This document shows positions 1,235 to 55,260 of a stretch of DNA of 64,000 nt, piece after piece; the stretch's first letter is position 1, and every line of letters starts with the position of its first letter. The position numbers and the translations under genes are program-made. The stretch is from Protoeuglena noctilucae (taxonomy: Eukaryota): the NCBI GenBank assembly GCA_958009085.1, contig OY253676.1:806001-870000 (forward strand). Direction: 5' to 3'. The notes under the pieces are model-generated. The model was not told the origin of the DNA, ran no database searches, and saw only the letters and a program-made list of their open reading frames with translations.

Positions 1235-1542
1235 CTTGCCCGGTCGTGCTGTGGCCGCTACTGCAGCCGCTGTGGCATCCGCCCAGCTGGGTCGTCGCCA
1301 TTCACAGCGTTGACGGCCTGCTGGCCACCCTCGCAGCGCCACCAGCGGCACTGCTCGTTGCAGAGCCACGCTGGGGATGAGGCTAGGGGTGGCGCCTGCC
1401 ATCAGCAACAGTCCGTAGGCCAGCCAGCCGTACACAGACCTTCCCTCGTCTAACTCGACTGGCTTTTTCAGACGAACCCCTCCCTTGTCCACTCAACTGG
1501 CGGCTTTGTCACAAGAGCCCCACTTTAACTCGACTGGCTCTG

Positions 1543-2897
1543 TCAGAAGAACCGCCAAGGGTCGCGGTCGGGCGCCACGTAGTCCCTCGTCTCGGGAATC
1601 AGTTCGAAACTCAGCGCTGTCTCTTTGAACTTGGCCTCCACGTCCGCCCACAGCGCCTGCATGACAGAGCGAGACCCGGGGTCACATGTTAAGACAGCGT
1701 CGAGGTGCAAAGGGGCCCCTGCAGTTGTGCAAAGGGGTTCATGCAGCGGTGCAAAGGGCAAGATCGCATCGGCTGTGCCACATGGACACCCCAGGCGCCC
1801 AAGGCTCACCTGGGGGCTCTGCACGGTCAACGTGTACAGGTAGGGCTCACCTGGGGGCTCTGCACGGTCAGGGTGTAGAGGTAGGGCGTGCCGTCCTGTC
1901 CGTTGCGGACCGCCGTCATTGAGAAGGCGTGGCGGTAGGTCTCCTTCCCCGGATCCGTCAGCGTCGGCGATCCCCTCGAGACGTGCTCGTAGAGGATGTA
2001 GCTGCGGCCGCCCTTGTCCACGGTCTGCACCGCCTCCACCGAGTTGAGCGACACGCGCTGACCTGACGAGATGCGCGCTGTCGAGCGGTCGATCAGCACC
2101 GCTTCGGCGACCGTCTTCGGGTCCCACGAGGAGGGGGCGGAGCCTGCCAGGATCGGGGAGGGAGGGCCCACGGAGACAGAGAGCGTGACGGCGTCACCCA
2201 AGTCGACCAATTCGCACACGTTGCGCTGGCGCGCGTCCGCCGAGAGCGGCGCCGCCGACGAGTAGCGCTCCGGGCGCCGGGAAAAGACGAAAGGGAGGGG
2301 CTTGCCGGAGCCTGCGAGGAGCGCGGGAGGGCAAGAGGTGCGACTGCGGCGTTCGTCGCTGCCGTGCAATTGCGCTGGGATGGCACGCGAAGCAGGTGAG
2401 ATATGGAGTATGTCACCTGTGCTCTTTGGGTACGCGAACCGGTACGCGAGGATCGGGTCCTCGACCGTCGCCCAGGCCCCCTCGTCCGCCCGCACGGGCA
2501 TCGACGGCCCAGCGGAAGCGGCCAGGCCCATGAGCAGCATCCACGTCCGACGCGATGGCTTTGCGACCGCGTCAGCGTTGTCCCCAGCCTCCCCGCCTTT
2601 CCCATGAGCGCACAGCGGCTTGCTACGCCTGCGGACAATAAAGGCGCTTTGCTCGCCTGCTTGCCCAAGCCTCACTGCGACCTCTACCTCAAGCACATGC
2701 ATAAACATGCCACAACGTCGACATCGCGCTGGAACGCCGCCCGTATGCGGGCGTCCCCGTGCGCCCCGGGCCCAGGGAAGGCATGGATAGTGTCGGCACC
2801 TGAGCGGCGCGCTGGCCGGCCGTTGGAGGACCCCGCGCGACTCTGCCGTTTTAGACAGTCTTGCACTTGCGTGCGAAGCGCCCACAAGGCCTGCCAT
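1543..2897 (-). CDS. PPD7: PsbP-domain protein 7-like thylakoid lumen protein, about 4 exons
   Basis: Bipartite transit peptide with twin-Arg SRRTWMLL...VRA|DE. Contains RRPERYSSAAPLSADARQR, SVSVGPP, YRH...YLYTL and C-terminal YVAPDRDPWRFF, matching plant PPD7 motifs as I recall them. Confidence 0.85.
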
Positions 2898-3304
2898 TGC
2901 TCCTGCTTGCTATCTCACGACGAGTTCGCTTGGTGGGATCTCGAGGCCGAGTTTGAGCAATCAGAAGCAGGATCGAGGGGACCCGCAACACATCGATCGA
3001 GTTACGCAATCAGATTGAGCCATCTGCCATCGCATCGGGATGAAGGCTTCGCAGACGGTGCGGCACGCGCGGTGCCAGCAACTTTTGTGTTGTTCCCCGC
3101 CCCGCCTCTTCGCCATCTGGCCATCCGTTTGCATGACACTTCCACTGAACTGTCACCACTCTACTTCCTCGCTCAGCTCCGCTTGGAATCGCAGCCTCGC
3201 CTTCCAGCAGCAGTCGCCGACGATTTCCCCCACCAGGCTGCTGTTGGCGGAGCAAGGGCTGTTGCAGGTGGATAAGGGGTGTTAGTGGGTGGGATCGGGC
3301 CGCG

Positions 3305-5389
3305 ATGCACGCGAGCGGGGGCGGGGGAGCGCGGCCAGGGGGCCAGGGGGAACAGCGCCGCACGCTGTTCCGCCTCGAGCCCCCCGGCGAGGACGACCCG
3401 CTCGGCATCGCTTGCCGGCTCGTGGAGGACTCGTACACGAGGTTGGAAAAGATCGGCCAGGGGACCTTCGGGTGTGGCGCGGTGGCCGTGTTGCAGCGCT
3501 TTGCCGTGCTTCCTCGGCGCCGGACGCGCGCACTGGCCCCGCCGCGCGGCTCCGCGGTCAGATACATAGGAAGACAATATAACGGCACCTTCGCATGCTT
3601 CTGCAGGCACGTGTACCTGGCGCAGGACCGCGCCTCGGGCGACCTGGTGGCGCTCAAGAAGGTTAAGGTGGAGAGCGACAAGGACGGATTCCCCGTCACG
3701 GCGGTCCGCGAGATGCGCGTGCTGCAGATGATTGACCACGAGAACGTCATCCGCCTGCGGGAGGTGGTCCGGTCGCGGCCGCACCCGACCAACGCGAACC
3801 GGGGCAGCGTGTACATGGTTTTCGACTACGCGGAGTGCGACCTGGCGGCCATCATGGCCGACAAGACCATCGAGCTATCCGCCGCGCACGTCAAGGCCAT
3901 CATGTGGCAGCTCCTGCACGGCATCGCGCACTTCCATGAGGCGAGTGTCGTTTAGCAGAGAATGCGCCGTAACCCTCCCGCGCTGCAGTGTAACTACGCA
4001 TTGTGCAGGACTATTATATTGTTTCGTTTGCTTCCGCATCGCTGGCTCGCTTGCGAATGGACGAATCGCGTCGCAAACGCCCCACGTCTTGACACGTCTG
4101 CAGTACCCAAGCGCTCCCATCTTGCACCGCGATCTCAAGCTCAGCAACCTGCTGCTGACCAAGGAGGGGAAGCTGAAGATTGCGGACATGGGCCTGGCCA
4201 GGGCCCAGGACAAGAACGGCATGACCAACCGCGTCATCACCCTGTGGTACAGGCGAGGAGATTGCATGTGGTGCATTGCATATGTGTGCACTTGTTTTTA
4301 TGGTATCACTGTCAAATTCATGCTAGGAATTGATTGCACTCCCACCAGCAGCCACCTGCTCATCGCCTGCTGTCGCCACGCACGCGCACCGACCCTGCAT
4401 TTCCAACCATAACCATTAGCACTCACTCATTCACCATCCCCCCACTTTGCAGGCCCCCGGAGCTGCTGCTGGGCGCGGAGGTGTACGGCACGGAAGTGGA
4501 CATGTGGAGCGTCGGGTGCATCTTTGCCGAGCTGCTCATCGGGCAGCCGATTTTCCGGGGGAGCAACGAGGCGGAGCAGCTGGGGAAGATCACGAGAGTC
4601 ATGGGGTGCCCCACCAAGGTGTGTTATGATGATGGGGAGTGATGTTGAGACATGCTTTGCTTAGAGATGGGGGTGTTGGGTGGGGCGTCCACACTGTTTG
4701 ACTGGCCACACATGTGCCGCACCCACCTCTCCTCACCTGGCCTTTCATCAACGCAGGATACTTGGCCCAACGTGCAGCTGCTCCCCCACGCCCACTTCCT
4801 CAACGCACGGCACACCACGAACAATTTGCGAGAGCATTTGGCGTCCTTCGACCGACGGCTGCAGCCGGAGGGGGCGGAGCTGCTGGCAAAGGCGAGGGGG
4901 GTTGGGTAGTCACATACAGATCGCTCTGTGCGATGGCTTGTGGTAAGGAGAGGAGCTGCTGGCGAAGGCGAGGGGGGGTGGTGGTAGTGATGCGAGAAGT
5001 GATATGTGCGATGGCTCATGGTTGTATACGTGATGATTATCATTGGTATGCGATGCTAGTCATCACTGCGACACCCAACACACGATGTGCACAACCCCAC
5101 GACACACGATGTGCACAACCCCACGACCCCACCTACCACCCACCCTGCCCCACCCTCCCTCTCCCCGCAGCTGCTCGCCATGAACCCCGCCAAGCGCCTT
5201 TCCGCGCGAGAGGCCCTGGCTCACCCCTACTTCACCACGGGCATTAAGGCCGCCACATCATTGCCATGGAAATCGGGACTGCACGAGTTGCTCGTCAACA
5301 AGAAGGGGCACACGCATGGTGGGAAGGGGCAGGAGAGGGGTAGGGGAGAGGAGCAGGGGCAGGGGAGGGCCAAGAGGGCCAGGCATTGA
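3305..5389 (+). CDS. Cyclin-dependent kinase, CDKC/CDK9-12-like, 6 exons
   Basis: [23 protein letters not shown] (PITAIRE-like), [50 protein letters not shown]. Three introns need GC donors (3941, 4253, 4892). Confidence 0.9.
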
Positions 5390-6021: not shown

Positions 6022-8988
6022 TCACCACAGCCCCAGGAACTTCCACCACGCCATCCCCAGCCCCCCCCAAATGACGAAGAGATTCATGAGACCCACGATG
6101 GCCCCGCACCGAAACACCTCAGGGGCCGTGACGTAGCCGCTGCCCACGTACACCGCGCTCTGGGGGGATGGGTGGGGTGGGGGGGGGGGGGGGGGGGGGG
6201 GGGGGTAGCAGGGGTTGGGTGCAAGTGGGTGGGGTAGCAGGGGTGGGGCAGGTGGGTGGGGTGGGGTAGGAGGGGAGGGGTGGGGTTGCTGGGGTGGGGC
6301 TGGTGGAATGGGTGGGATAGGTGGGGTGGATCACTAGTGTACTAGTGATACACATGCCACTCTCCCCTCACTTGTCCCAACACATGCGCGAAATACATGC
6401 TCACCTGCCCCGACGCGTAATGCGTGACAGCCGCGTTGATGGCGCTCCCGTAGGCGAGGGCGAGCGCGGCCAGCAGCCCCGGCACCCCCGCGCCCATCAT
6501 CATGCTCAGGTAGGCGGCATAGAGGGCGCCGACGTGGGCGGTCTGGGAGGCAAACATGTAGTGCTGGAGGAAGTAGCCTGGGGGTGGGGTGGGAGTTGGG
6601 GGAGAGGTGAGAGGTGAGAGGGTGTTGTGAGGGTGATGTGAGAGGGGAGGTGAGAGCAGGCGGTCAGGGAGGCAAACATGCAGTGCTTGGTGTGCCGTCC
6701 AAGCACCACATCTCACCCACGCGCAATGCACAGAACGCCGCCATCCATCACTGCATTGTCTATATGCCGTCATTACACCAGCCATGTACGATCCCATCAC
6801 TGATAACGCATTACCAGCCAACCAATCCTCTCACCCACGTTGAGCGCGCAGAAGGCCGCGACCCAGCTCCCGCTCCTCTGCGTGATGGCGGCGCCCATCT
6901 GCCGCGCCAGGTGGGGGATGACCCCGACGGCGCTGAGGTGCGCCGCCATGCCCAACAGCAGGCCGAACCAGATTAGGTTGTCCCAGGCGGGGCGGTTGTC
7001 CTGGGATACACGGGGGTTGATCATGCGATAGTTGAAGGGGTGGCGGTACAGTTCATTGATCGTGGGCCAATGTCTGTGATATGATGTAGTACATTGTCAA
7101 AGAACGCGTCGCTCACCAGGCATTCGCTCCAGGTCAGGCTCCCCGTGAACATCAGGGTGCTGCGGGGGGGTGAAGGGTACACGGATCGCGCTCAGTGAGA
7201 TAGCAAGTGGTGCAGCACAAACGCAACACCACAAACCCAGCACTTATCCACTTGACCTACCTCACTCAACATATTAATCCTTACTTCCATCCAATCCCTG
7301 TCTCTCACCCCACCACCCACCACCCTCACCTCAAGCTGAGCATGGCCGCCGTCGTCGGCGACACCCCCACCGCGTGCCCCGCCACCCACAGCCCCAGCGT
7401 GGCCACCATCACCCCCGCCACAATGCGCTCCTTTCCCGTCATCGCGCCCATCGCCGCCAGCCTCCTCCGGGCCTCTTGCGGTGCCTCCGGGGTAGCGCCT
7501 AGCTCGGGGGGCGTGAGTTTCAAGAGGAGTAAGGGTGTGACGACCAGGCTGGTGAGGGCGGGGACGGAGGCGGCTTTGAACCAGGTGAAGAAGGGGGAGG
7601 GGATCGTGACGCCCGCCTGGGATGGGGGGGAAGGGGAGTGGTGGGTGCGTGTGTGCATGGGTGGCAGTGGGGGTGAGAGGTGGGTGAGGGTGATTGCAAT
7701 CACCAACCCCGCCATTCGCCAGCTTGAGCAAAGCATATCACAGCCATCCACCCTTCTCACCTCCCCCGCGAGCCTGACGCACAGGAATGACTGGGCGCAC
7801 GCGGTGAGGAACATGGCCGAGGACGCCACGCTGCACTGCAACTGGCACATCGTCAGAAACCTCCCCAGCCGGTGCCGCGAGGGGTGGTTGGGCATCGACC
7901 CGGCGGCTTTGGACACGGACGCGATCATGGGGTTGAACACCGCCCCAGCACGCGCGGCAGAGGATGGCATGGCGGGGGCGAGGGCGGTCTCTGCAGCGAC
8001 CAGGGCGTAGGCCAGGCCGAGGGGGGAGCGGCCGAATGCACGGACGAAGAGGCACGCGAGGCGGTCGCCAAGGCCGGAGTTCTCGACGGCTTTGGCCAGG
8101 AAGAAGCTCAGGGTGACCTGCAGGGTGGTGAGTGAAGGTGGCTGGGGTCATGGGGGGTCATCGGCTTTGGCCAGGAAGAAGCCCAGGGTAGCGCCAACAC
8201 GCAACGCCCAGGGCCCAGTAAGCCCTTGTTGCTCTCATCAGTCCCTTCCCTGCTCTGCCACGATATCTACCACAATGACCCACTCCCCTCTCTCCAGTCC
8301 TCACCAGCCAGAACGCCTCGTGCGTGAATGCGCGGAAGGTGTCAGGGAACGACGCCGACCGGGTCGCCACCGCCGCCGTCGCGCCCAGGAAAGACCACGC
8401 CGACATCGGGAGGGGCTTCAGAACCACGCCAGCGATCGTGGACGCGAAGATGCACAGCATATTCCAGCCCTGCGGGAAGGAAATTGCCGTTGTTGTGAGA
8501 ATGGATGCGGGCCCAAGCAGTTGCCACGCCTCCCGGCGCGCTCGGCTGTCGGGCCGCGCGTGGATGTCTGCGATGGATCTCACCGATTCAGAGAGCTCCG
8601 TCGGCATCGGTATGAAGAGCTTGATGGCGAGGCCGAGCGCAACGCAGAGGGCCGCGCGCGGGAGGTTGCAGGCGCCCGGCAGCCACCGCGAGGACGGCTC
8701 GACGGCCTTCACGTCGACCGACGATGCGTCATGAGTCGCTCGCACGCCTCCTGCGGCGCATCGCGCGGAGCGGCCGTTGCAGGGGGCGCCGCTATTTCGC
8801 AAGGCACGCTGAGCAGGCTCCTGGCCCCGGTGCTCGCCTTTGACCCAGCGGGGACCCGGCGATGTGTTGACATGGCCCACAGGGCGGGGAAGCGGGGGAT
8901 TGATGGCACATCGGTGCACGCGCGGGAGCGGCCCCGCCGCGTGGGGGCTAGGCGCGCTCCCCAATGTCCGAGACACCGCCGCACGCAT
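6022..8988 (-). CDS. DIT2: Plastid dicarboxylate transporter, DASS family, DiT2-like (glutamate/malate translocator), multi-exon; start uncertain
   Basis: GWNMLCIFASTIAGVVLKPLP, MPSSAARAGAVFNP, AWDNLIWFG, HYMFASQTAHVGAL, THYASGQ|SAVYVGSGYV and terminal WWKFLGLW*. ASQT.HVGAL and HY.SGQ favour DiT2 over DiT1. Confidence 0.88.
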
Positions 8989-11334: not shown

Positions 11335-14300
11335 ATGAGCCGCGTGCGCGCCCAGCGGCCGGGAACGTGGCCCACCGCGTCCGCGGCGGCGTGGTCAGCA
11401 CCGCATGCCTTGGCAAGCTGGTCTCTTCGCGGGGCGGCCACCGGACGATGCTTCTGCTCCGCCGAACTTGCGCATTCCTTGTATATGTGGCTTCTTTCGG
11501 TCCTCTCCGCCGAGACGTGGGCGGGAGAGGGAGTTGTGCTGCCGGCCCGCACATCTGAGCGTGCGCCTGCGCCCTCCCGCGCAGCGCGTCGATCGCGGAG
11601 GGTCAGGCCACGGCCTCCGTGGCTCCAGCAACCGTGTCGCAGACTGCGGACGCGTGGGGGAACGTGTGCGGGGAGGCCGGGCTAGGCGGGGTCGGCCCCG
11701 GCCTGCACAAGAAGGGGGAGCAAGCGCCTGCGCCCGCGGACATGTGGGACGTCATTGACCCGGTCCCGGCCGGCACGGCGATCGTCCCCTCGTTTGCGAC
11801 CACGAGCTTCACAGGCAAGGGGCGCTAACTGCCATGCTGCGCCGATATCGGACGCCGAGCGCTGCGATTGCGACGCTATTCGTTTCGGTGAAACCGCGCG
11901 GCGGGTGACCGGCTTGCAACTCCTAACCCGCCCCGCAGCTCTGGCGGCCGGGATTGTCGTGATTTGGTTGCGGTCTTACGGGGGCCACTGCGGCCCCGAT
12001 GTGGGCCGCGGGGAGAGGGCGGCGTGCGTGACGTTCAGTATTTGCGCGACGGCATGCGCCGCGATCGCCGTCGCGTCTTGGTTCGTGCTCCTGCTGTGCC
12101 GGCGCGCGACCTTTGAGCGGCTCGCCATGCCGGCCTGCATGCTCATGTGGGTCCTCGTGTCTGCGTCTTCCGTCGCCGCCATCTTCGATCCCGACGGCCT
12201 CGGCCTCCTCCCGACGCACGTCTGGCGCGGCGAGCAGCCCGCCGGCCCCGGTCCCGTCATTGCAGCCTACCTGGGTGAGCGCCATGCTGCACGCACACCA
12301 AGCACAGGCTTACCCCTTACCCGCGCTCACACATGCACACGTACACGCTAACGCTCGTAATTCAACATTACTGCGTTGGATGGCTCTGCAAGAACGCGAA
12401 TGTGACGTGGCTGCATGCTGACAGCTCGCGCTCAACTATACCCTACCGCCGTCCTCACTCCAACCCACTTCTCCCGTACCCTCTTGGCCCAGTTAAGCCC
12501 CACCCCCACCCCACATATCACCACCCTCACCTCACCCACCCACCCGCCACCCACCCCTCACCCTCTCACCCACCCCCCCAGGCAACGAGTTTGTCACGGC
12601 CATGGTCCAAGTCCTGACCCTCCTCGTCTGCGTGCGCGACCGCCCCCGCGCCCGCCACCGCGCCCTCGCCGCCGTCGCCCTATCCCTCGCCACCCGCGTG
12701 GCTGCCTCGTCCGCCTCGCTCTTTGCCCCTGGCGTGCGCCGCGCCATGCCGCCCTCCGCGTCCCCCGGCTGGGCCGTTTTAGGTTTCCTCGCCTGCTTCG
12801 GCCTCGCGGCGTCGATCGCGGTGCTCTGGACCTCCTTCATGCACCCCACCTGGGTGGGGCTGGACGTCCCGGTGGGGACGCTCGAGCGCCGCGTGCACGC
12901 ACCCATCGTCCCCCGGCCCCTGCGACTCCTCGGCCTGAGGGGCACCAAGCTCATCGTCGGGATCGCCCTCGCCGCGTGCTTCGTGCTGCTGGGAGCGCTC
13001 CAGGTCTCCAACACCCCCGTGCCGCCCGTGGTGGGGCTGGCGTGCATCGTGGCCGTCACGGCGGCCATGCGGGTCAGCATATCCGTGCATCTGCGTTTGG
13101 TGAAACTGCTCCTATCGAACGTGCTGTCCGGGGAGGGCATCTACGCCACCCTGACCGGGCTGACGACGGACATGCGCGAGGGGCGGCCCAACCCGGTGTT
13201 GCCCGGGAGGGAGTGGGCGGGGGAGGACTCGCATCGGTGGGGGGCGTCTTTGGACATAGCGACGCGAGATGGTGCCGTGATGCTCCACCAGCATGTAGAG
13301 GACGTGCTGCAGCGGAGCCGGGCGTGGATGCCCCCCGCGGTGCTGCTGCCGCTCAAGCCGGCGTGTACGGTGCTGGAGATGGAGGTGCTGGAGTTCCGAG
13401 CCATGACGGGGGGCAGCCACCCGCAGGAGGTCATGCAGGTGAGGGATGGGTGGGGGTGGGGGTAGCAGTGGGGGTGGCGGTGAGGGTGGGGGTGAGGGTA
13501 GCAAGGGGGGAGGGGGTGAGGGCGCGGGCGCTTTGTAACCACTCACTCATACAACCACGCTCTCCCCTCCCCCTTCCTCAGATGATCCAGGGCCTGGTGA
13601 TGCGCATGAACTGGGTGCTGGCGCCCTTTGGTCTGTTCAAGTACCACTTCAGCGGCCACCGGTGCACCTTCGTGGCCAACTACTACCAGGATGACCCCAA
13701 CCACGCCTTCAACGCGCTCATGGCGGGGCTCACTATCGTGCAGGCGAGCGATGGGGGTTACTTGATAGCATAGATAGTATCGATGCATGGGTTGGTGGGG
13801 CTCACCGTCGTGCAGGCGAGCAGAGGGATTGGTGGTGATTTTCCGACTAACCTAGCACCTCACCTACCGACCCACCCCCACCCCCACCCACGCACCCACC
13901 CCACCCCTCTCATCCCCACCTCCCTCCCCCCCAGATCGCCCGCACCCTCGGCCGCCCCGCCCGCATCTCCAAGGCCAACTTCAGCCGCTTCTCCCAGCTC
14001 CGCGCCGTCTCCGCGGGCCCCGCGCCCCGGTGGATGTCGCGCCGTCACTCTTCCCTAGACGGTCAGAAGTCGGGGGCGGTGAGGAAGGACGGCACGACCA
14101 CGCTCGCCCGCATCAGCACCCTCGTGCAGCAGGCGGAGGGGCTGCCCGTGCGGGTGGGGTTGCACAGGTGAGGGGCGGTGTGTAGTTGTGATGGTCCATG
14201 TCAGCACGGTTGTGTAGCAGTGAGGGGCTGCCTACAAAGACAACCAACTCCTCCCCTCCCTCTCATCTCCCCGCAGCGGCCCGGTGGCGGCGGGCATGGT

Positions 14301-19695: not shown

Positions 19696-19752
<57 letters not shown>

Positions 19753-22530: not shown

Positions 22531-22713
22531 CACGCATGCTCACAAAAAAATAGAGATCATCGTAGGTCCACTCATTCAAGCGCGCAATCATCGCTGTGAA
22601 CTCTTAATCAGTCCAATCAGCCGCGGCTGCATCGCCGCGCCCTGCCTGGACGAATGCTGCGTGCTGCGCAGACAGAATCGCTCGCGCGCGCGTCCGCGCC
22701 TGTGCTATCACAC

Positions 22714-23433: not shown

Positions 23434-23994
23434 CACGGCTGTCCTGGACCTGATGGGCGCCGGGAGGAATCAGCGCATTGTCAGGAGGTGTGGGCGACTG
23501 TGTCGCCACGGTGGCCGGGACGAGACAGAGTGTGGCGGTGGCACGTGCTCGGGTCGGGCAAGCGAGTGGGCAAGGCGCGGGCCGGCGGCAAGGTTCCTCG
23601 GACCTTCCGGGTCCTTCCCTCGCGCGTTTACCTGGGCAAGGCCCGGCGAGCGCTCTGAAGCGCGAAGTAGCAATCACGGGATCAAATCACGGGGAGGGTA
23701 TGGCGCCGGAAGCGGTGCCGGGCACGACAATGACGGCTGCATGCTGCCAGATGGATCTGGCGGCGCAGACACTTTTTGGAGGTCTGCCGCACCCGGTCTG
23801 GCCAGCTCTCTCGTCAATGACTTCTCCGTGACAACCGTTTCAATCCTCAATCAGAAGCTCGCCGTGATCGGCGCGCATGAATCAACCGCGGCTGCATCCC
23901 CACGTCCTGCCCTGGAAGAATGGGTTAGGGTGGCGTGCTGCGCAGACAGAATCGCTCGCGCACGCGTCCGCGCCTGCTCTATCATCGCTCTCCC

Positions 23995-34000: not shown

Positions 34001-35003
34001 GTTCTACATCGCAGCGTGTGTGCGGGACCCGAGGGGGGGGGAGCCCCCCGTGCATCGCGAGTATTTCCTCTGTCACCCCGACGGCTACGTTTTCCGGGGA
34101 GGGAAGTTCCCGGATCTGGAGGCGCTGGTGGATGAGTTCAAGCGCAAGCCGGGTGAGCGAGGGGTGGGGGTGGAGGTGTGTGTTATGGGATGGCGTGACT
34201 GGTGGATGAGTTCAAGCGCAAGCCGGGTGAGTGTGCGAGGGGGTGGCGGGTGTGTGTACTGGGATGGGGTGGGTTGGTGGGCAATGACATGCTGGCAGGG
34301 TGGGGTGGGGATGCACGTAACTGCACTCGCAAGCAACCCCACCCATCTCACCCACTCACCTCCCTCATCACCACCCCTCCCGTCTTCCTCCCCCCACAGT
34401 GGCCAAATCCACCGCCCCCTCCGCCCCCCCTTCGCGGCCCGCCGGCACCACCGCGGCCATCTTTGGATTCGCCCCCTTCCGATCCACGGGAGCAGCCACG
34501 CCCAACGCCAACTACGCCCCGCCGCTGCCGGTGAGGGGAGTGGGGCGGAGTGGGTGCTGTCTGTGTCGCTGTGCTTGTTGCAGCTGTCACGTGCACCCCA
34601 CTTGCCTCCTCATGCCACGCTCTTGCCACTCCATCTTACACACTCCATCATGCACCCCCACTATCTCATACCCCCACCCACACCCCATCTTACACACCCC
34701 ATGTCGCCACCCTACCCCCCTTCCCCCCTTCCTCCCCCCCCGCAGCCCCCGCCAATGGGCATGGCCTACTCATCAGGCGCAGCTACCCCGGGCGGCCGCC
34801 CCGCCTATCCCGCGCCCCCGCTGCCCTACCCCCCCGCCATGCCCGGCGGTGCATCGGGGAGTGGGGTTGCTGCGAACAGGGGTGCGAGCATGGGTGCCCC
34901 GTCCGAGCCATCCATGACAGATCTACTGCAGCGGTCTGCGGCGCACATCTCGCAGCAGCTGGGGAGCCAGGGCGGGGGGGCGAGGGGGTATGGGGGGGGT
35001 TGA
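25003..35003 (+). CDS. SPT6: Transcription elongation factor / histone chaperone SPT6, about 20 exons
   Basis: Acidic N-terminus (DEFEQDGFVV, ELDEEDYEI, AQEIFGD), MLTERDDEIRNTDLPEREQL, YqgF-like HRPHVVVVG, HhH YVPGLG|PRKASALI, DAIR|VHP, S1 domain, tandem SH2 (RRIEHPYFRN, PSTKGPSSLRLTFKV, YEDLDE). Confidence 0.93.
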
Positions 35004-40300: not shown

Positions 40301-42779
40301 TGCGTGCGAGGGCGAGAGTGAAAAGGGGTGGTGATGCTTGAGCAAAGGAGGCAGCCCCTGCAACCCCTGGTGTGGAAAAGAAGGGAAGAGTGACGTCGAA
40401 GTCCCAAATGATAGAGGTGACGGACGTTGATAGGCGAGCGAGGGGGGGGGGGGGCGGTGAGGGGTGCGCAGGCGATTGTGACAGAGAGGGGCCAGGGAGC
40501 GGGGGAGCGATTGCCGGTGGGCCCGTGGGTGCGCAAGGTGTGGGCGGCGCCATTCGCGAATTTCGACTGGCGGTGGCTGGGGGAGGGGGAGATGGGGGGG
40601 GAGGAGCGCGTGTGCGGGTGAGATGAGAGGGGGTGCGGGTGCGGGTGGTTGTGTTTGCGTGAAGGGTGGGTGTTAAGCAGAAAGGGGAGTAACTAGAGAG
40701 TAGTATTTGTGTTGTTTTTGATATCAAAGACTCCCCTTCTATGTGCAGTTTCAAGCGCCCCCCCCAGTGCGTGCCTGGCTACCTGGGCGTCATCACCTTC
40801 ACACGGGAGCCAAACAGCAAGGCGAGATGGTGGATGCGTCGACTATATAGATCATCTATTAATTATTATAACCGCTTAATATTTATGATATAATTATAAC
40901 TGTTATTCTTCATATTATACTGATAACTTTATGATTGTTATTGTTGTAATTATTATTATGATTACTAATACAAATATCCAATTTCCACCCCCAGAACTAC
41001 TCCGGCGAGTTCACCTTCTGCATGTGGAACCACAGCCGCGCCGTCATTTACAATTACCCCGACTCTTTCCCGACAATCGAGGCCGCTGCTCGCGCTTATG
41101 ATCGCGTGGCAATCGCGTACAGTGGGGCTGACCGAGCACACACCAACTACCCTGTGGAGGGAGATGAGGGGGAGGAGGGCGGTAGGGAGGGAGGGAAGGG
41201 TGAGGGGTGTGGGGTTGGGGTGGCAGTGAGGGTGGCAGTGGGGGTGGTGTTGAGGGTGGCAGTAAGAGTGGTCGTGTGGGTGCCAGTGTGGGTGTGGGTG
41301 TGGGTAGCAGTGGGGGTGGCAGTGGCGGTAGCAATGGGGGTAGCAGTGTGGGTGTGGTTGCTAATGGGAATGCGTTTGCAACTCTCTGTCACTATCACTG
41401 TCACCCTTTCTATCTCTATCACTTATTACTAACTAGTAATCTCACTCTCCCCATCCCCCAACCATCTTTCAGGCATTGAGCTGAGCGTGGGCGGCAAGTC
41501 CTTCCCCCACATGGGTCTGCATGTGTTGGAGCTCAGGAGCAAGCTGCCGCTGGCGTGCTTCAAGGACGCCGTGACGGGTGAGGAGGCGTGTTGTTTGTTA
41601 AAATAATTTAATAGTTAAGTAAATAGTATAAATAGAGATAAAGGGTGAGGGTGCGTGCTTTAAGGACACCGTGAGGGGTGAGGGATGCATGGTTTATTTG
41701 CAAAGAAGTGAGCCTGTGTGTGGTTTGTAAGACACAATGACGGGTGAGGATGCGTGTTGGCTATAAATAGTCTATGAATGGAGATCATGGGTAAGGGTGC
41801 GTGCTTTAAAGACACCGTGACGGGTGAGGATGCGTGTGATTATTATAAATAGGAAAAGCAGCGAGGGGTGGGGTTCGTGCATCAAGGTTAGCGTGACAGG
41901 TAAGGCTGCATGCGTGATATTAACACACCGCCACTCCCGCACCCGCTCCCACCCCTCCCTCTCCCCTATCCCAAACCCAACCTCCTCGTCCCATGCCCTC
42001 TTCCCAAACCCCTCTTCCCGACCCCCTCACCAACTTACCAACCCCCCCTTACCAATCCCCTTAATCCCTTCCCCCCCCCCCCCCCCCCCCCCGCCCCTTT
42101 CACAGCATCTGACTGGGTGGCGTGGCGCGAGGGCGTGTGGGAGGAGGCATGTACGCACGCACTCAGGCGGGGAGACGAGGGCAAGCGGCAAATAGCACAG
42201 CTGGGGAAGCGGATCAAGTTCTTGTTGGAAGCACTCGATTCTGACATCGTCAGGCCCAGCCAGGTGGACAGGCGAGGGGTGGGGTGTGGGGTGGATGGGA
42301 CGGGGGGGTGGGCTGGTGGGGTGATGGGAGTGGTGGCTGTCATGTCATCGTTAATTATAGTACTATTATAGTACTATAGTATTATAGTACTATTAATTAT
42401 AGTGATCATATTTAATGTCAACTCTTTCCGATCGACTCACCCTCTCTCTACATATCACAGGTTCAAGCGCCTGCTCAGTGACTGCGATCGTGTGACGGAG
42501 GTGGGGGTAAAGGAGGAGCACTGGGCCACGGAAGACGGTGAGATGGTAGTTAATGTATGTATATTTTTTTATGGTTATCATTTGTCAATATATGCGGCGC
42601 TGTTACAAGAGGTGGGGGTCAAGGAGGAGCACTGGGCGAGAGAGGACAGTGAGTTGGTAACTAATACATGTAAATGTGTGTCTCTATTATGAAATTACTA
42701 TTAATAGTTATATAATGATATACTTTATATAACTATATACAGAGCTCCCACACTGCTGGTCCTGCGCAGTGACACTCTC

Positions 42780-42826
<47 letters not shown>

Positions 42827-45800
42827 ATAGTATACTATATATACTATATATACTATATATCTCTTATATATCCCACAGAGCTCCCCCACTGCTGGTCGTG
42901 CTGCGTGGCCCGCGCCCGTCGCAGCGGGGGTGCGTCCCCCGAGCAGCGCCGTCGCCAGATCCGGCACGGGTCGGTGTGCCTAGTAGCGATGATCAAGGCC
43001 ATTCAGTGGGAGATGGTGTCGTGGGACGCGGTGAAGGTGAGATGTGAATGAATGTTCGAATGAGTGAGTGAGTGAGGGAGTGAGTGAGAGTAGCATGAGA
43101 GTGACTGAGTGGCATGGATGATTAAGGCCATTCAATGAGAAATGGTGTCGTTAGCACTGAGATTGTCGTGGTAACTAGAACTATATCGCATATCACTTCA
43201 TCACTTTCTCCCTCCTTCCAGGCCCGCGAGGGTGGCAAGGACGCTGCGGGTGCGGCCATGAGGGAGGATGCCATCATGATGGATCTCTTCGCCAGGGGGC
43301 TCAAGCAACTGAAGGGGGAGGGGGAGAGCACGCCGCTCGTCAAGGTGAGGGGTGATGCATTTGACGATAACATATTCATATTATTGATCATGTAATCAAA
43401 TTGATTGATAGTCGTGTTATTGATTATATTGTTCGGGTAGTTGCTCATTTTTTTTTTTAAGTATTTCTCAAGTTACCTCTTCCCTTTCCCCACCCGCAGG
43501 CCGCCGCCCCCCGCCGCCGCGCCTTCCTGGGGGGCAACAAGGGCCGGCAGCGCGCCAACACCGCCCAGCAACACCAACACCAACAACAACAACAACAACA
43601 ACAGCGGGAGCGGGAGCGGGGTGGTGATGGCAACGGCGATGCGGGGCCGAGCAGTGGCGCAACCAGTGCAAACGGGGCAAGCGGGGCGGTTGTTGCAAAG
43701 GGGCGGGGGAAGTGGCGCGGTCCCAGCTCTGCGTTCCGGCCCGCCAGGGTGGGGCATTTGGTGCCCGAGGGGCTGCGCGTGGTGGTGATTGGGGCGGGGC
43801 CGAGCGGGTGCAAGGCGGCGTTTGACCTGCACGTGAGTGACTAAGGAGAGGGAGAGAGGGGAGGTGTGGAATTGTGTTGTGTTGTGTGTTAAGAGGGAGA
43901 GTTGCAGAGCGGGTGCAAGGCGGCGTTTGATTTGCACGTGAGTTACTTGGGGGGGAAAGATGAGAGAGGTGTGGGGTTGTGTGGTGTTGAGGGAGATGGA
44001 GGGAGTTGTGAGAGTAGTAAGAAAGGTGTTGCGTTGCGTTGAGAGCAGATCAACACACCCCACCCTTATTACCCCACCCCACCCACTCACCCCCCCTTCT
44101 CCACTCACCCCACTCACCCCCTCCACTTCCCCCCCCACCCCCCCCCAGCGCATGGGTGCCCACGTCACCATTCTGGAGGGCCGGGACCGCGTGGGGGGTC
44201 GCATCCACTCCTGGCGAATGAAGACGGGGGCAGCGGCAACGGGGAACGACACAGTGGCAGCTGCGGGGAATGACGATGTTACAAGGGCGACTGACGGGGC
44301 AGCGATGGGGGCAACTGATGCGGCAGCAATGAGGGCGGCTGATGAAGCAGCGATGAGGGAGCGTGGGACTGATGCAGCAACAACAAGGGAGCCTGCGACT
44401 GATGCAGCATCGAGGTCGCCTGACGCAGCCACTGCACCCGCACCCAACACAGCCACCGCCCCTGCTGCTCCTGTCCCCCTCATCTCCCCATCAATGGTGA
44501 CATCAACGGTGACGGTGGACTTGGGCGCTTCGTATATCTGTGGCACCAGCCGCAACCCCCCCTGCAACCCCATCTTAGAGTACTGCGTGGACAAGCTGGG
44601 GCTCGAGATCAGGCCCAAGGCGAGTGGCGATACTGTGGTATTTTATGATTTTATATAGTTATTGATCGTGTGTTTGCAACCCATATTTGTGTCATGTTAG
44701 TATCCAATATTTATCCTTATATTTTAGCTACAGCTACAGCTATAGTAATATTTACCCACTTACCCCTTATCTCTTCCGCAATCACTCCCAGTTCCGCGAC
44801 AGCGCCAAGCACGTTGCCTTTTTCGGCAGCGACGGCCGCCGTGTTCCCGACAAGACGGTCACGCGCGTGATGGCGAGATATGACGCTATTATGGACGCCC
44901 TATTGGAAATGAGCGATGAGTCGTGGTGCACGCCCGATGTGACTATGCAAGAGGCGGTGGACAGGCTCATGAGGCAGGGGGTGGGGGGCGGGGGCAAGCG
45001 GGGGGGCGGGGCGGCAAAGCGGGGGGGTGGCAGGAGGGGCGTGGGGCGAAACGGGGGATCTGGCAACGATACTGGCACCGGCAACGGTGCCGGAAACGGC
45101 AACGCGGGCGGGGACGGCAATGGGCGCGATGCGGGTGGTGGCACGAACGCAAATGCGGGTGGTGGTGGTGGTAATGGTGGCAGTGGTGGCAATGGTAACG
45201 GCAATGGTAATGGCGATGCTGATGCAGATGTGGAGTCTCAGATCATCGACGCGCTGTTCAGTGACTTGTATGTGGCTCCGATGGATGCCCTGTCACTGAC
45301 GGGGATGGTCAGCGAGGGCTTTGAGGGGGACCACGAGCTGGTGATGGGGGGGTTCAAGTGAGTTACTGGATATGTATATTTGCTAATATATAGATATAGT
45401 AATATGTATGATAATCATATGGTATGGTCAGCGAGGGATTCGAGGGGGACCACGAGCTCGTCATGGGGGGGTTCAAGTGGGTATTGTATGCGTGGTAATA
45501 ACTTAAGAGTTACTTAGTAATTCTATGCAATTATTATGTACAGTAATAATTACAGCAATAATATGATTCTCTCTTTACACCCGCAGGCAGATGATCGATG
45601 CCATTTTGGACGGCACCCCCCCCGACAACGCGCCCAAGAACCCAGACCTGGCCATTCGGTGAGTGGGAGAGTGGCAGAGACGATGTTTGGCTGCTATGTT
45701 TTTCACTTTTTTATCTTATAGCTTTTCTTGTGATCAACTTCCAAACCACGACAACTATGTAAATCTATATATAAGGTGGCAAATATTACTGTCATTCCCC

Positions 45801-47341
45801 CCCCTTTGCCCCCAGTGACAAGGTGCTTCTGTCCCACAAGGTCACTCAAATACAGACCGTGCCTGGGGGAGTGCTGGTGCACTGTGAGGGGATCGACCGG
45901 CCATTCGCGGCGCATTGCGTGGTTTGCACGCTGCCGCTGGGTGTGCTGCAGAAGGGGGCAGTGCAGTTCACGCCGCCATTGCCGGAGGTGAGGGTAGTGT
46001 TGAGTAGGGGGGGTGTGTGGGTGTGGGTGTGGGTGTGGGTGTGGGTGTGGGTGTGGGTGTGGGTGTGGGTGTGGGGGTGTGGGTGGGTGGGGGTACCTGG
46101 GGTGGGGCGGTGGTGGGTGGGGGTGTGGCGAGGGTGGTGATGTGATCAGGATGCCAATGGCCATGTCAAATTCAAACCATTAGCCCCTCTTTCCCTTTTC
46201 AGTTCAAATCCGAGGCCATTCGCCGCCTGGGGATGGGCACCGAAAACCGCGTCATGCTCACTTTCCCCAGGCAGTTCTGGCCAAAGGTGAGGGACATCGA
46301 CGTGGCGATTTAAATATCTGGTTAATGCGGAACAATGCCAGAGCTATCAAAATGACAAGCGTTTGTTTGTGTCAGATTAAAGCAAACGAATACCTGGCAC
46401 ATGCAGGCCACACCTGCATACACGTGCATACTCCCCTCCCCGCATCGCAGGGCCCCCATTTCCTGCGCCCGCTGGGCGAGTGCCGCTACACCTTCATCAG
46501 CCTGGCAGAGATGGGGGTCGGCAACGCCATGTGGTGCCACGTCAGGTGAATGGGTGTTGCATGTGCCATTAGGGATGCTATTGCAGTGAATGCCATGTGG
46601 TGCCACGTCAGGTGAGTGATGGAGTGATGGAGTGCATGAGTGCATGAGTGCTGCAAGTGCCATGGGTACTGCTATTGTTTGTGAATGCCACATGGTGCCT
46701 CATCATCAGTATTACTAGTTCATACTAGTAATACTTGTAACTAGTGTATTCACACCTTGCCGCTCCTCACCACTCCCCAGGCCCTTCGCCATCACCGAGG
46801 TCGAGGCCATGACGGACGAGGAGGCGGTGGAGGACGTCATGGGGCAGTTGCGAAAGATGTTCGGAGACGACATACCCGATCCCATCGACAGGCGAGATGG
46901 TGCATGCATGCACTTTCAACCACACCACCACTTCACCACTCCACCCCTCCCCCACCTCATCCCCCCACTGACCCCCGCAGCAAGGTCACGCGCTGGCAGA
47001 GCGACCCCTTCTGCTACGGCGCCTATTCCTACGTCCCCCGGGGCTGCCCCAAGGAGGCATACAAGGACATGTCGCTCCCCGTCGCTTGCGACCCAGCGAC
47101 CGACGCCCTGTGTCGCAAGCGCAAGCACGCGTCCGACGTCATCGCGCGAGAGCGCAACGTCCGGGTGTTTTTCGCGGGGGAGGCGACGAGCCCGGAGGAC
47201 TCGTACACGGTGCATGGGGCTTACGCTTCTGGGGCCAGGGAGGCAGAGAGGGTGAAGCGGTGGTGGGGCGCGAACGGGGCGGGGCTGCTGAGGGACTTCC
47301 GCGTGACGGAGCATGAGGTGGTGGAGGCGGAGGAGCAGTGA
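37339..47341 (+). CDS. Large nuclear-type protein: PTM-like Tudor + AP2/ERF domain + FAD-dependent amine oxidase (LSD1/PAO superfamily), about 20 exons; frame problem at about 40339-40455
   Basis: Tudor: MVGGEVRKRFLGEFYEGDV...WYH|VSYEDGDSEDM. AP2: GYLGV...FPTIEAAARAYDRVAIAYSGADRAHTNYP. Oxidase: VVVIGAGPSG, ILEGRDRVGGRI, DLGASYI, VVCTLPLGVL, RWQSDPFCYGAYSY, FFAGEAT...TVHGAYASG. Splice phases link all exons from the AP2 domain to the stop. Confidence 0.8.
42783..42870. repeat. Intronic (CT)n and TA-rich simple repeats
   Basis: Directly visible. Confidence 0.9.
46015..46075. repeat. Intronic (GTGTGG)n repeat
   Basis: Directly visible. Confidence 0.9.
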
Positions 47342-47533
47342 GGAGAGCGATGGGTGGGGCGCAAGTGCTAGTTGAGTGTATCATGATGGCTGTGCGTGGC
47401 GCGGCGAGCGCTGGATTGGAGTTTAATGTGCTGCTACGAAGTTTAGAGTATACGGAAACACACGCGGGCATCGGAGGCTCGAGGCGCTGCAGAGAAAGCC
47501 AAACACACTGGGCAGCCATCACCAACACTGCCA

Positions 47534-48409
47534 TCACTCGGGTGTCAAGTAGTCCCGCCACTCCAGGACCTCCTCAGCTTTATCAGACTCCCCAATCTTG
47601 CTCAGCTGCAGCGCCAGCACGTAGTACGTCCGCTCCTGCGGGCAGCAAACGAGGTCCATCTACAAACCGCAGTGACCCTTGCCCGCGCGCGAATGTGGCC
47701 CCGGGCCGCGCGTAACTCACCTGCACGAATTGTTGTTTCGTGACCATCGCCTCCACGAGATCGTAAGCCGCGAGCGCCCGCCCGGACTGCGCCAGGACGC
47801 GTGCGGTGACGTTGGACACCTCGACGTCCCCTTGCCGGCTTGAGCCAGGACCCGATACCAGCGCGAGTGCTCGGTCCGTGAGCTCTTCGTTCTTCTCCGC
47901 CCCCACAGCCTCCAGGACCGCCACGGTGGTCGCGGTCGACGGCGTCGCGCCGCGCTGAAGCAAGCCCTCGAAGAGACCCAGCGCCCTCTCCCACTGGTCG
48001 CTCGCTGCGCACGTGCGCACGGCGCACTCGATTGATGCACTCGAGAGCTCCAACTTCAAGAGCCTCGCCTCCGCCAGGAGTTCCAGGGCCTTGACGAAAT
48101 CCTCATCCATCTCCACCTCCGCCAGCGCTGCCTCATACGCTGCCGCGGAGGCACTCCCTGCGCATGATGAAGTGAAAACGAGCTTAAAGAAGCCATCGCG
48201 CCCATCGCTGCGTTGTATATCGTGGCGTGGAGCTACCTGTCCCCCATGCAAAGCGCACCTTCGTCCTTCAGCCGCTCATGCTCGTCTAGCCGCGCGCCCC
48301 GGCACCGGACGCTGCGGATCGATTGATGGATGCAAATATGTGATCGTGATGATCCCGCGCGGGGCGCCAAGGCGTGGCGGGCCGGCGCGCACGCGAGCCC
48401 GCCGCGCAT
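47534..48409 (-). CDS. Small PPR-like helical-repeat protein with a probable organellar transit peptide, 3 exons
   Basis: MRGGLACAPARHALAPR...|GSA...IECAVRTCAASDQWERALGLFEGLLQRGATPSTATTVAVLEA (PPR-like)...FVQ|ERTYYVLALQLSKIGESDKAEEVLEWRDYLTPE*. Confidence 0.65.
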
Positions 48410-51964: not shown

Positions 51965-52254
51965 GGTCGGGCGATTGCTCGCTACGTGGCCGGGGGCAAG
52001 GACTGGGGCGGGGGGGGCTGGGCGGGGGGTGATGCCGGGGACGGGCTCGCCAGAAACACAGGTCAACCGCAGCGCCGGGGGGGCATCTGGGGGCGCCGGG
52101 AGGGGCCGGGCGCCATCGATTCGCTCGCAGTACCTCGATAGGCTTGACACGAGGCGGTGAGGATCAGCCAGGACGTCTCGGGCTTGTTTCGCGCCTGGGA
52201 ACGCACAATCGGGAGCTTTTCCAGTGCCCCTGCGGAAATCTGTTGACGGTGAGA

Positions 52255-54803
52255 ATGGTGCCGATGCGCAGCGGCGTAGCATCGCGTCGAGGGAGCGTCT
52301 CGGCGCGTGTCAACCGAGCGGCGACCAAGGCTGTCGATTTGCGCCACGATGGCTCGCTGTTCTGTGGCTGGTCCGCGTCGAAGCTGACGTATGCATCGTG
52401 TGCTGCTCGCTGGGGTGTCCCGGCGGCGGGCTCGCTCCCGCACGGCCCAGGGCAGGGGTCGGTTACGCCTCTGACGCTCCGTGCTGTCGCCGCCTGCCTG
52501 CCGGATGTCGCTTTCAGCTCTGCCCCCGCTTCTGCAGGCTTGATGTTCGTGCTCGACGTGCCTCTCGCGCGGCAGGCGCCCGCGCTCGCGGAGGCCCGGG
52601 GGTGCGTGCGGTGCGCCCCGTCGACGAGTCAGCCGCGCGGCGCGTCGCTGCGGCCGCGGGCCTGGCGGAAGTCGCGCGGGGATGACGAGTTGTCGGGCGC
52701 GACGCGGGAGTCGACTCGCACGCAATTCCAGCGCGGGCAGGGGGGCACGGAGGCGTCCTCGAGCGCCCAGCCACCGCAGCGCCAGGCGAGCGGCCTCCCC
52801 GCGCGTTGCCCCCTCACATCCGTCTTATAAACGCTACAGACGTTAACATTCCCTCTTCCGCAGCACGCGAAACGGACGTACCTGATCGCGGTGGACGACT
52901 CGGCCGACAGCGAGTTCGCAGTGGCATGGGCCATTGAGAATCTGCACCAGCCAGGGGACGAGATTCATCTGCTCCATTGCGTGCCTTACGTGCCCAGCCG
53001 GGTGAGTTTCTCTTGAGAGACATGAAGGCTATGCTATGTTACTACCATGCGAACGAAGCACGTCGCCATGCTTGCCTTGGCACCGCTCACCCTACCAACC
53101 ACCCTGCCCTTGCGTCGCGCCCAGGCCATCTACTCGACTCCCGCGGGCGGCTTCGTGACGGCTCCCGCCAACGACGAGAGCCGGTTCTTCCAGAAAGCAG
53201 AGGCCATGGTCACCACCCGATTCCGGTGAGTGGTTGCTGTATATGCTTGCCAAGCAGCCATGGGTGCCAGCCACGTGTGCGGTATCTACAGCGTGCCGTG
53301 ACAGCTTCCGTCGTGACTCTCCACAACTCAGTCCACCTCACCGCCTCCATCACACACCCCCGCCCCACCAACCCACTGCCTCCACCTCCCCCACCACCAA
53401 CCCCACCCAACCCCTCCTCGCAGCCGCCACTTCGACGACGCCTCCGTCCCCTTCACCGTCGACATCATCCGCGAGGGCCCCCGCCACTCGGACCGCACCG
53501 TGGCCCAGCGCATCTGCGACGCGGCATGTCGGCTGGGGGCCGACGCAGTCGTCATGGCGTCCCACCGCATCGGCAAGCTGTCAGAGTTCTTTTTGGGCTC
53601 GGTCGCGATGAGCTGCGTCCACGCCTGCGCGTCGCCCGTGGTCGTGCTGCACCCCTCGGCACTGCCGGGGCACCCGGCGCCACCGCCTGTGGCGCAGAGG
53701 CAGACCAAGGGGCGCGGGCGCAGCATCGGTGAGGGGGGAGATAGTAGTGGTGGTGGGGTTTGTTGATGAGAGTAGTTGGTGCTGCATGTCGTGCGTTGGG
53801 GGGGCTAAGAGAGCTGCCACACTCATGGTTGCCACCCTCACTTCTGCCAACCCCACAGCTACCCTCATTGCCAGCCCCACCGCCACCCCCACTGCCACCC
53901 ACACTACCACCCACATTGCCACCCTTATCACCACCCCCACTGCCACCCCCACTCCCCACCCGCAGTGGTGGCATTGGACAAGTCTGATGCATCGCTGGAG
54001 GCACTCGACTGGGTGGTGGCGTCCATGTACCGCAAGGGCGACAGGCTGCACCTCCTCCACGTCATCCCCATGCTGCCATTCGCGTCCGCATTCCACACGG
54101 GGGCAGGTGAGCGGAGTGAGCGTGATGGGTGGTGACAGGCATGAGTGTAATGGGTGGGGGGGAGTAAAGAAGATGGGTGAGCGTGGTTGGTGCAGTGAAA
54201 GCAAACTCAGAAAACACGTGGGGATGTTCTGCCACTTATCCCCCATCACTGCCCTCTTCTCCCACTCTCAGAGGGTTTCGTGTCTGTGGCCCCCCCCGCT
54301 CTGCTCGGGGGCGACGAGGAGCTGCACGCGGTCAGGGAGGCCGTGACGCGGCGCATCAGGGAGAAACTGCGAGGTGAGGGGGGGCCGGGGTGTCATGTCT
54401 TTCTTTCAAAACTCAATATCCTTCTCCTTACTCGCTAAGGCCCGTGTCCATGTTGGCCCATGTTTATGGTGCTTGCGATCTAATAAGCCGACAGCCTGAC
54501 TGCCTTAATGTCACACTTACATTATCTCTTCACCCTCATCTATTCCATCCAATCGCAGACACCGCCATCCCCTTTGATTTGGACGTGGTGGTGGAGGTCC
54601 TCCCGGACGCCCGCGCCTCCATCAGCGGCGCCATCTGCGACGTTGCTGAGGACAGACAGGCCGCAGCCGTGGTCATCGCTGGTTACGGGAAAGGGCCGAT
54701 CGCGGAGTTCCTGCTTGGATCGGTCACCAACTACGTCACGCACCACTGCACGAGGCCCACGGTGGTGTTCCACTCGGCGGCGACGGGGCAGCACAGGCAC
54801 TGA
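52255..54803 (+). CDS. Universal stress protein with two USP domains; start uncertain (52255 or 52543)
   Basis: RTYLIAVDDSADSEFAVAWAIENL...IHLLHCVP and VVMASHRIGKLSEFFLGSVAMSCVH. Second domain: VVALDKSDASLEALDW...LHLLHVIP and AGYGKGPIAEFLLGSVTNYVTHHC. Confidence 0.88.
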
Positions 54804-55260
54804 GTGTCTGTGGTGGGGGGTGGGGTGTGAGATGAAGCCTGGCGGTGGCTGATGAGGAATAAGCTCATGGTCGTGTTTCACTCGGCAGCGACGGGGCACA
54901 GGCACTGAGTATCTGTGGTGGGGGTGGGGGTTGGGGGAGTGAGATGGGGGCTGGTGGTGGCTGATGAGGGATGAGTGGGGGGCGAGTGGGATTGGGGGTT
55001 TGGTGGAGGTGGTGGTGGGGCAGGGCGGAACGCCGCCGTGGCAACTAATCAGAATAGCAGCTGAGCTGCCTGGCGAAGCACTTGTATATACAAAGCGCCC
55101 TGTCACGTCATGATAGCTCTACAGTAGCCCCGTGCGGCGTCAGCTGCCTTACTGCTTCAACACCGATGGAGACTGCCACAGGTCGTTACTGCTAAGCGTG
55201 TCCGCTACTGCAGCAGCGCCACAGTACTGCCACAGCGTCTCACTTCAACCCAGTCCACTA

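Follow-up and report, generated by a model that had tools for sequence, protein, structure and literature searches.

In intron 7 of the human F7 gene, the first element of a 37-bp minisatellite spans the exon-intron boundary and the 5' pseudo-sites located downstream of it are silent (PMC1557585). More generally, tandem genomic duplication that duplicates splice signals is a recognised source of intron change (PMC3443670), and in Chlamydomonas reinhardtii and Volvox carteri the density of tandem repeats is highest in introns and is raised near intron-exon junctions (PMC3887541). Here we analyse a 64-kb stretch of Protoeuglena noctilucae contig OY253676.1 (positions 806,001 to 870,000, hereafter the window, numbered from its first base), which is intron-rich with a GC content of 64%, and in which short copies of exon ends, here called echoes, lie in the neighbouring introns or untranslated regions (UTRs). 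The echoes are probably by-products of small tandem duplications whose units span an exon-intron junction or take in a stop codon.

The likeness to F7 intron 7 is close, since the copies are direct and head-to-tail, the first repeat unit holds the exon end together with the authentic donor, several copies may be present and intact pseudo-sites lie downstream in the intron (PMC1557585). However, F7 is a single mammalian locus, whereas about 22 such loci are found here in 64 kb, with acceptor-side and stop-codon versions in addition; the units are longer and the copies more diverged than in F7, and experiments on F7 demonstrated silent pseudo-sites and scanning from 5' to 3', which for the window would be suppositions (PMC1557585). 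As in other tandem genomic duplications, splice signals are duplicated and the mRNA would stay unchanged as the surplus copy is spliced out, but in the AGGT model duplication of an exonic segment creates a new intron with the length of one unit, whereas the units described here straddle existing longer introns and only extend them (PMC3443670). Intron birth from an exonic AGGT duplication was therefore rejected, the echo units being located inside longer introns: the intron around the 41-bp unit at 1803-1884 has over 100 nt left up to the next coding segment, and the introns of the window's Spt6 gene that follow 28616 and 29703 extend to about 28918 and 30034, respectively. With the two green algae the window shares a GC-rich green-lineage genome, a tandem-repeat density that is highest in introns and an excess towards intron ends, although that study counts motifs inside annotated introns and, in the portion considered, describes no units with exon sequence or duplicated splice sites (PMC3887541). 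Introners likewise add intron sequence in marine protists, but they form dispersed families with many near-identical copies, while the echoes copy the local exon (PMC9860276). A transposon or introner origin was rejected for this window, where no dispersed repeat family was found, the long-range matches amounting to two direct ones, of which one is a 690-nt paralogous block and the other is of low complexity, with none inverted. The process had been thought undescribed and had been linked to exon renewal. Given the whole-unit similarity, direct orientation and arrays documented below, it is instead probably ordinary tandem duplication, an event of a known kind whose local density is unusually high here, and no new exon-renewal process is supported.

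The echoes themselves are well founded. All 20 exon/echo pairs of the preliminary description align, at their listed positions or a few bases away, as do two echoes in a transporter gene ("DiT2"; 6537/6659 and 8087/8162). With a fixed repeat filter (blastn score of at least 38 bits, 3-mer complexity of at least 0.5, offset 25-300, copies not overlapping), 18 direct-repeat hits at 15 loci were retained in the window, none in any of ten local dinucleotide-preserving shuffles of it, and no inverted short-range repeat in the window itself. No Rfam match and no tRNA lies under the echoes. The exon copies are the ends of coding segments as judged by codon-usage scores and, for Spt6, by tblastn, in which the matches of three distant relatives end near 28616, 29703, 33000 and 34151-34169 and begin at 31858-31867. 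About 14 echoes are of the donor-side type, 5 of the acceptor-side type and two or three of the stop-codon or UTR type (14 versus 5, binomial p=0.06), for a density of about 22 loci against about 99 coding segments. That echoes include the splice site or stop codon, as had been claimed, is true of most of them: GT is retained at the position matching the authentic donor in 17 of the 18 donor-type copies examined, and AG in all three acceptor-type echoes that include the junction. The claim does not extend to the echoes at 6659, 8162 and 43117, which stop short of the splice site and are copies of inner exon parts.

For 12 of the 20 comparisons, similarity between copies extends beyond the exon-derived part to the rest of the unit, with z>4, an identity of 62-84% and units of 41-232 bp. 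Arrays detected by Tandem Repeats Finder (TRF) with periods of 41, 67, 74, 87 and 91 coincide with five echo loci, and three or four copies are present at five (28598, 29674, 39329, 41553 and 46523). TRF reports 89 rows in the window, many of which are intron-only arrays with periods of 20-57 bp, and one of these (5078-5127, 24 bp x 2.1) is still 100% identical, so that the duplication process appears to be general and ongoing. Direct orientation only, together with the lack of a dispersed family, argues against transposons and against templated insertions from either strand. The echoes are decaying rather than being kept as conserved coding copies: 28 non-synonymous differences, a nonsense codon at 43009 (TGG to TGA), a frameshift (20515) and a 3-nt deletion (54870) were counted. 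We found no evidence for exon renewal. The missense and frameshift changes reported previously were recovered, namely a 1-nt insertion in echo 20515, two non-synonymous changes at 6659 and one at 8162. Unit lengths show no preference for multiples of three and most offsets are not multiples of three; for this reason, and because the echoes are partial exon ends carrying the decay marks just listed, tandem exon duplication was also rejected.

In the explanation that we favour, repeat-prone, G/T-rich non-coding DNA would frequently undergo small tandem duplication, most likely by replication slippage or unequal exchange. The units would measure from 41 to about 230 bp, sometimes grown to three or four copies, and some of them would by chance lie across an exon-intron junction or a stop codon. 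The normal mRNA would still be made via the splice site adjoining the intact exon, while the second copy of the exon end and its splice site would join the intron or UTR, lengthen it and then decay. That echoes lengthen introns, as first proposed, is supported by our data. The exon-like part would remain recognisable longest because its real exon partner is frozen by selection, and the 8 of 20 comparisons lacking spacer similarity may be old, decayed units.

In regards to the predominance of synonymous differences, which had been put at about two-thirds, our own count is lower. Over 659 exon sites at the 20 loci we found 63 unique exon/echo differences, of which 35 are synonymous (S) and 28 non-synonymous (N), that is 55.6% synonymous, with 34 at third, 17 at first and 12 at second codon positions. 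A difference common to several echoes of one exon was counted once, two differences at the outermost block base (20440 and 28598) were dropped, and codons following indels (the 1-nt insertion in echo 20515 and the 3-nt deletion in echo 54870) were left uncounted; before locus 31846/31761 (3 S, 7 N) was added, the count was 32 S and 21 N. If only the echo changes, and does so neutrally, the expected synonymous share is 23% under uniform mutation, 30% conditional on the observed base changes (p=2e-5) and 24% with the substitution spectrum of the intron-derived parts in these repeats (p=7e-8). The synonymous bias is thus real with respect to neutral decay of the echo, as had been proposed. However, the neutral expectation of about 40% given previously, where we obtain 24-30% for decay of the echo alone, leaves out that the exon copy changes too, and only at synonymous sites. 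The exon copy contributes only synonymous changes and the echo all kinds, and therefore the differences look "synonymous"; under a two-lineage null of this form, with an expected share of 2f/(1+f), the expectation rises to 39-46%, a range exceeded only marginally by the 56% observed. Conditional on the observed spectrum, 46% is expected (p=0.086), a value that moves to 0.24 without locus 45302 and to 0.027 without locus 31846, while heterogeneity among loci is not significant (p=0.40). When rates are calibrated by mutation class on the N changes, 24.1 S are predicted against 35 observed (bootstrap p=0.094). The tabulation by codon position against a spectrum-aware null that had been suggested thus yields, for the 20 loci of the window, an excess above neutral decay that becomes marginal against one-sided selection. 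In our reading, most of the bias is the trivial outcome of comparing a working exon with a dead copy; with 63 differences, a residual excess of up to about 1.4-fold is possible. Between echoes, where neither copy is coding, about 2 of 7 differences in the exon-derived part are synonymous, with no visible synonymous bias.

CpG transitions are by far the fastest class among the exon/echo differences, N changes having occurred at 9 of their 53 opportunities and at 3 of the 178 open to other GC-to-AT transitions, which hints at CpG methylation in gene bodies.

Several observations weigh against simple duplication followed by free decay. With the spectrum of the intron-derived parts, the two-lineage null expects 39% synonymous differences against the 56% observed (p=0.005), and in the class-calibrated model the non-CpG classes contribute 31 S where about 9.6 are expected, CpG transitions departing in the opposite direction (4 against 14.6). 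Echo 45421, with 5 S and 0 N, is out of frame, its flanks are hardly alignable, and it is the most striking single case, although its pattern is within chance expectation for 20 loci. The exon-derived parts differ at 41 of 439 positions (9.3%) with 1 gap column, and the intron-derived parts of the same high-scoring segment pairs (HSPs) at 155 of 765 (20.3%) with 63 gap columns; one-sided constraint predicts 13.2% mismatches in the exon part (p=0.008 against the 9.3% observed). The same is seen between echoes, with 7 of 91 exon-derived against 57 of 270 intron-derived mismatches (p=0.004). The rest of the unit has no significant similarity in 8 of 20 comparisons (z<2.5). Finally, with the complexity filter on, an exon end is involved at 14 of the 15 loci, which may be explained by duplications that begin in low-complexity intron DNA. 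The low divergence of the exon parts possibly results from a higher mutability and slippage of the G/T-rich intron parts, from the choice of loci by exon-part similarity, or from short-tract conversion from the exon.

Could the residual excess have been present from the start? Unequal crossover or repair between diverged alleles would create copies that differ from birth at neutral rather than constrained sites, and this could account for the possible excess over one-sided selection (p 0.005-0.09), for the intron-derived (20%) and third-position (34 differences) divergence being each more than twice the rate implied by the N differences, and for loci such as 45302/45421 (5 S, 0 N) and 1844/1803 (3 S, 0 N). 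Yet decay is needed anyway with 44% of the differences non-synonymous, so that allele capture cannot be the main story, and the homogeneity of the loci (p=0.40) gives no separate class of "synonymous-only" echoes. Moreover, echo 45421 has changes at 5 of its roughly 19 third positions, a level far above the usual within-species diversity. As a general explanation we consider allele capture unlikely, although unequal crossover between diverged alleles may have made a small contribution to the residual. Echoes might otherwise be maintained, by recurrent short-tract conversion from the exon or by a role as decoy or alternative donors or in splicing regulation. The exon-derived parts, about twofold less diverged than the intron-derived ones and nearly free of indels, also between echoes (p=0.004), would fit, as would the GT in 17 of 18 donor echoes, an echo donor at 46589 that is nearer to the consensus than the authentic site and, post hoc, a stronger synonymous bias in donor-type echoes (25:12 against 10:16 in the other types, p=0.039). 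However, conversion erases S and N differences alike and cannot create a synonymous bias, at about 9% divergence the GT count is near chance, unit lengths do not favour multiples of three, and the echoes with the strongest synonymous bias, at offsets of 119 and 41, lie out of frame. The intron divergence can be inflated by slippage-prone G/T-rich parts, and the picking of loci for exon-part similarity is an ascertainment bias, so that maintenance seems to us quite improbable. Echoes with multiple-of-three offsets are no more synonymous-biased than the rest, and in-frame alternative use was rejected; indirect purifying selection through conversion into the exon was rejected by argument, the conversion rate allowed by the divergence being too low for selection to be passed on effectively.

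The comparisons without a significant spacer copy after the echo (8 of 20), and the isolated blocks of 28-35 nt at 1451, 6659, 8162, 13793 and 43117, are what would be expected if double-strand breaks in introns had been patched with nearby sequence, giving isolated exon-end copies with no spacer duplication. Such templated-insertion repair is nevertheless very unlikely, in view of the complete lack of inverted copies and of the whole-unit similarity or arrays at most loci, and the isolated blocks carry N changes and so look like old, decayed units. As for an artefact in which haplotypes or read errors were joined in tandem by the assembly, the window does contain a 200-N assembly gap at 21854-22053, but the units are no longer than about one short read, the copies show graded substitutions and indels (0-33%), and some arrays consist of three or four copies that have diverged from one another. 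In addition, sampled words of the region 38000-47900, which holds nine echo loci, were found in independent contig sets at a share of 0.99 in the organism's own runs (possibly the source) and of 0.91 and 0.78 in environmental metagenomes of another study, although these two last shares cannot prove each individual echo. An artefact therefore appears scarcely credible, and the tandem duplication of junction-straddling units, followed by decay of the surplus copy, accounts best for the echoes.

Among the minus-strand loci, that at 1451-1553 is a stop-codon echo, in which the block 1526-1553, made up of the exon end with its stop codon TGA (1543-1545) and the first part of the 3'UTR, reappears in the UTR 75 bp downstream (1451-1478); the 28 nt are 89% identical, with 1 N difference among 8 coding bases. 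At 1803-1884 an exact-register 41-bp tandem duplication comprises 34 nt of exon end followed by GTGAGCC (authentic donor at 1851/1850, echo at 1803-1843); TRF gives it a period of 41 with 2.1 copies at 93%, the differences are 3 S and 0 N, and both donors read CAG|GTGAGC. The two other echoes on this strand are inner exon blocks of the Na_sulph_symp / DiT-type transporter gene copied into the upstream intron, one at 6537-6687 (6537-6565 to 6659-6687; 0 S, 2 N) and one at 8087-8189 (8087-8114 to 8162-8189; 28 nt, 96%, 1 N). On the plus strand, the protein-kinase gene carries a donor-type echo at 4876-5022 with a unit of 76 bp (HSP 4876-4944 / 4952-5022, 78%; rest of the unit z=5.3). The exon-end echo at 13721-13821 has a unit of 72 bp, 1 S and 2 N, its boundary being uncertain between a GC donor and a nearby stop codon. 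In the donor-type echo at 20440-20545, with a unit of 75-76 bp, the echo carries its 1-nt insertion and the donor GGT|GGGTGG. The acceptor-type echo at 20968-21345, which adjoins the assembly gap (locus 21306/21074), has a unit of 227-232 bp that takes in the 3' part of the intron, the AG and the first 35 nt or so of the exon (exon 21311-21345, echo 21079-21113); its HSP of 153 nt is 76% identical, with 33 matches and 2 mismatches in the exon-derived part and 84 matches, 25 mismatches and 9 gaps in the remainder.

Five loci of the plus strand belong to Spt6. Three copies of an exon end and donor occur at 28598-28790 (period 66-67; TRF period 67, 2.6 copies; tblastn match end 28616) and, with 27 nt of exon end, at 29674-29930 (offsets 91 and 108; TRF period 91; tblastn match end 29703). 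The acceptor-type echo at 31743-31892 is the most decayed locus, with an offset of 82-84, a gapped alignment and 3 S and 7 N in 42 nt, the tblastn matches starting at 31858-31867. A donor-type echo at 32951-33100 has an offset of 102 (HSP 42 nt, 93%; 2 S, 1 N), and its intron part is unalignable (z=-0.2). Finally, a 74-bp tandem duplication is found at 34125-34271 (TRF period 74, 2.0 copies, 86%), where the exon-derived 28 nt are identical and the intron-derived part shows 36 matches, 8 mismatches and 2 gaps.

Further along the same strand, a minisatellite of 87-88 bp with about four copies extends over 39329-39650, its first copy comprising just the last 10 nt of the exon and the donor (TRF period 87; z=5.6-13). 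At 41553-41851, 25 nt of exon end and GTGAGG are present in three copies (offsets 100 and 146; 2 S and 2 N unique differences). The donor-type echo at 42498-42675 has an offset of 111 (HSP 67 nt, 82%; 4 S, 2 N), and an open reading frame (ORF) at 42372-42692 continues past the exon end (42537) and across both the spacer and the echo (42609-42649), so that splicing at the echo donor would lengthen the coding sequence in frame by 111 nt (37 codons). It is followed by an acceptor-type echo at 42681-42901 with an offset of 136 (exon start 42876-42901, echo 42740-42765; HSP 89 nt, 76%; 2 S, 0 N) and by the echo of an inner exon block at 42988-43151 with an offset of 129, in which the donor is lost and the nonsense change lies (3 S, 1 N). 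The flavin amine-oxidase gene has a 105-bp unit in two copies at 43799-43989, with the donor CAC|GTGAGT identical in both (HSP 86 nt, 80%; z=5.9; 2 S, 1 N), an exon-end echo of 58 nt with an offset of 119 at 45302-45482 (HSP 62 nt, 90%; 5 S, 0 N; flanks barely alignable, z=2.2), and three copies of an exon end and donor at 46523-46710, spaced by 66 bp and then about 100 bp. At this last locus the echo donor CAG|GTGAGT (46611/46612) is nearer to the usual consensus than the authentic CAG|GTGAAT (46545/46546) located 66 bp upstream. The Usp-family gene has a stop-codon echo at 54755-54969 with an offset of 108, where the echo bears the 3-nt deletion and the 3'UTR part is similar too (rest of the unit z=9.7).

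One further duplicate lies on the minus strand at 58692-58798 (58692-58725 / 58765-58798; 34 nt, 91%, offset 73, coding score 3.1), inside an apparent intron of a minus-strand gene, and was absent from the preliminary description. Located between coding segments and having no coding signal itself, it looks like an intron-only counterpart of the echoes.

The genes of the window include Spt6, with its S1 and SH2_2 domains, an ADP-glucose pyrophosphorylase, an exportin and an SRP54-type GTPase. Pfam matches identify in addition a protein kinase (3581-3943), the Na_sulph_symp / DiT-type transporter (PF00939), the flavin amine oxidase (PF01593 on 46773-47338) and a Usp-family protein, in which PF00582 stops at the exon end. 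Near-identical sequence occurs in runs of one labelled organism and in marine metagenomes and metatranscriptomes, most structural neighbours of the ADP-glucose pyrophosphorylase piece come from Chlorophyta, and the source of the window is taken to be a marine green-lineage alga. Its lineage is poorly sampled: in an exhaustive search of 1.84 billion representatives the nearest Spt6 relative is 48% identical, and it was used for the exon map only. In a metagenome scan the amine-oxidase exon found no relative, and the Spt6 SH2 exon found just 3 loci at 30-34% identity, too distant to polarise the synonymous changes. The Spt6 S1 exon had no match among longer proteins, and the sole match of the amine-oxidase exon end as a protein query was the unspliced ORF of the window itself.

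The 690-nt block mentioned above, found at 22796-23464 and 24017-24683 with 71% identity and a spacing of 1.2 kb over minus-strand coding segments, has the appearance of a tandemly duplicated gene or domain. TRF also reports long AT-rich microsatellites within this 64% GC window, (ATA) x 18.7 at 19697-19752 and (TATTAC) x 40 at 19840-20077, and G- or C-rich arrays with a 12-nt period and 6-12 copies at 28330-28406, 38225-38363, 41217-41354 and 53844-53953, which thus occur at several genes and may be either coding (Gly-rich) or intronic.

In regards to method, apparently synonymous divergence is always to be expected between an exon and a copy next to it, as only one of the two is free to change, and such comparisons need a null with one-sided selection and not neutral decay alone. 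A stronger reading, which we regard as rather unlikely, is that exon-anchored minisatellites, which about 1 in 5 exon ends of the window bear, are a main route of intron lengthening here, with cores that short-tract conversion from the selected copy holds near the exon sequence or that unequal crossover partly seeded from diverged alleles. If it were true, and the cores do not decay freely, the genome would be full of intact pseudo-splice-sites that the spliceosome must ignore, and it would constitute a natural genome-wide experiment on splice-site choice. If the density of about 22 loci per 64 kb holds genome-wide, hundreds of authentic sites would be followed by one to three near-identical copies, a situation that in human F7 has been studied construct by construct, and such cases could show how a donor is chosen among equivalents in an intron-rich alga, as well as the share of intron growth that is due to duplications spanning a junction.

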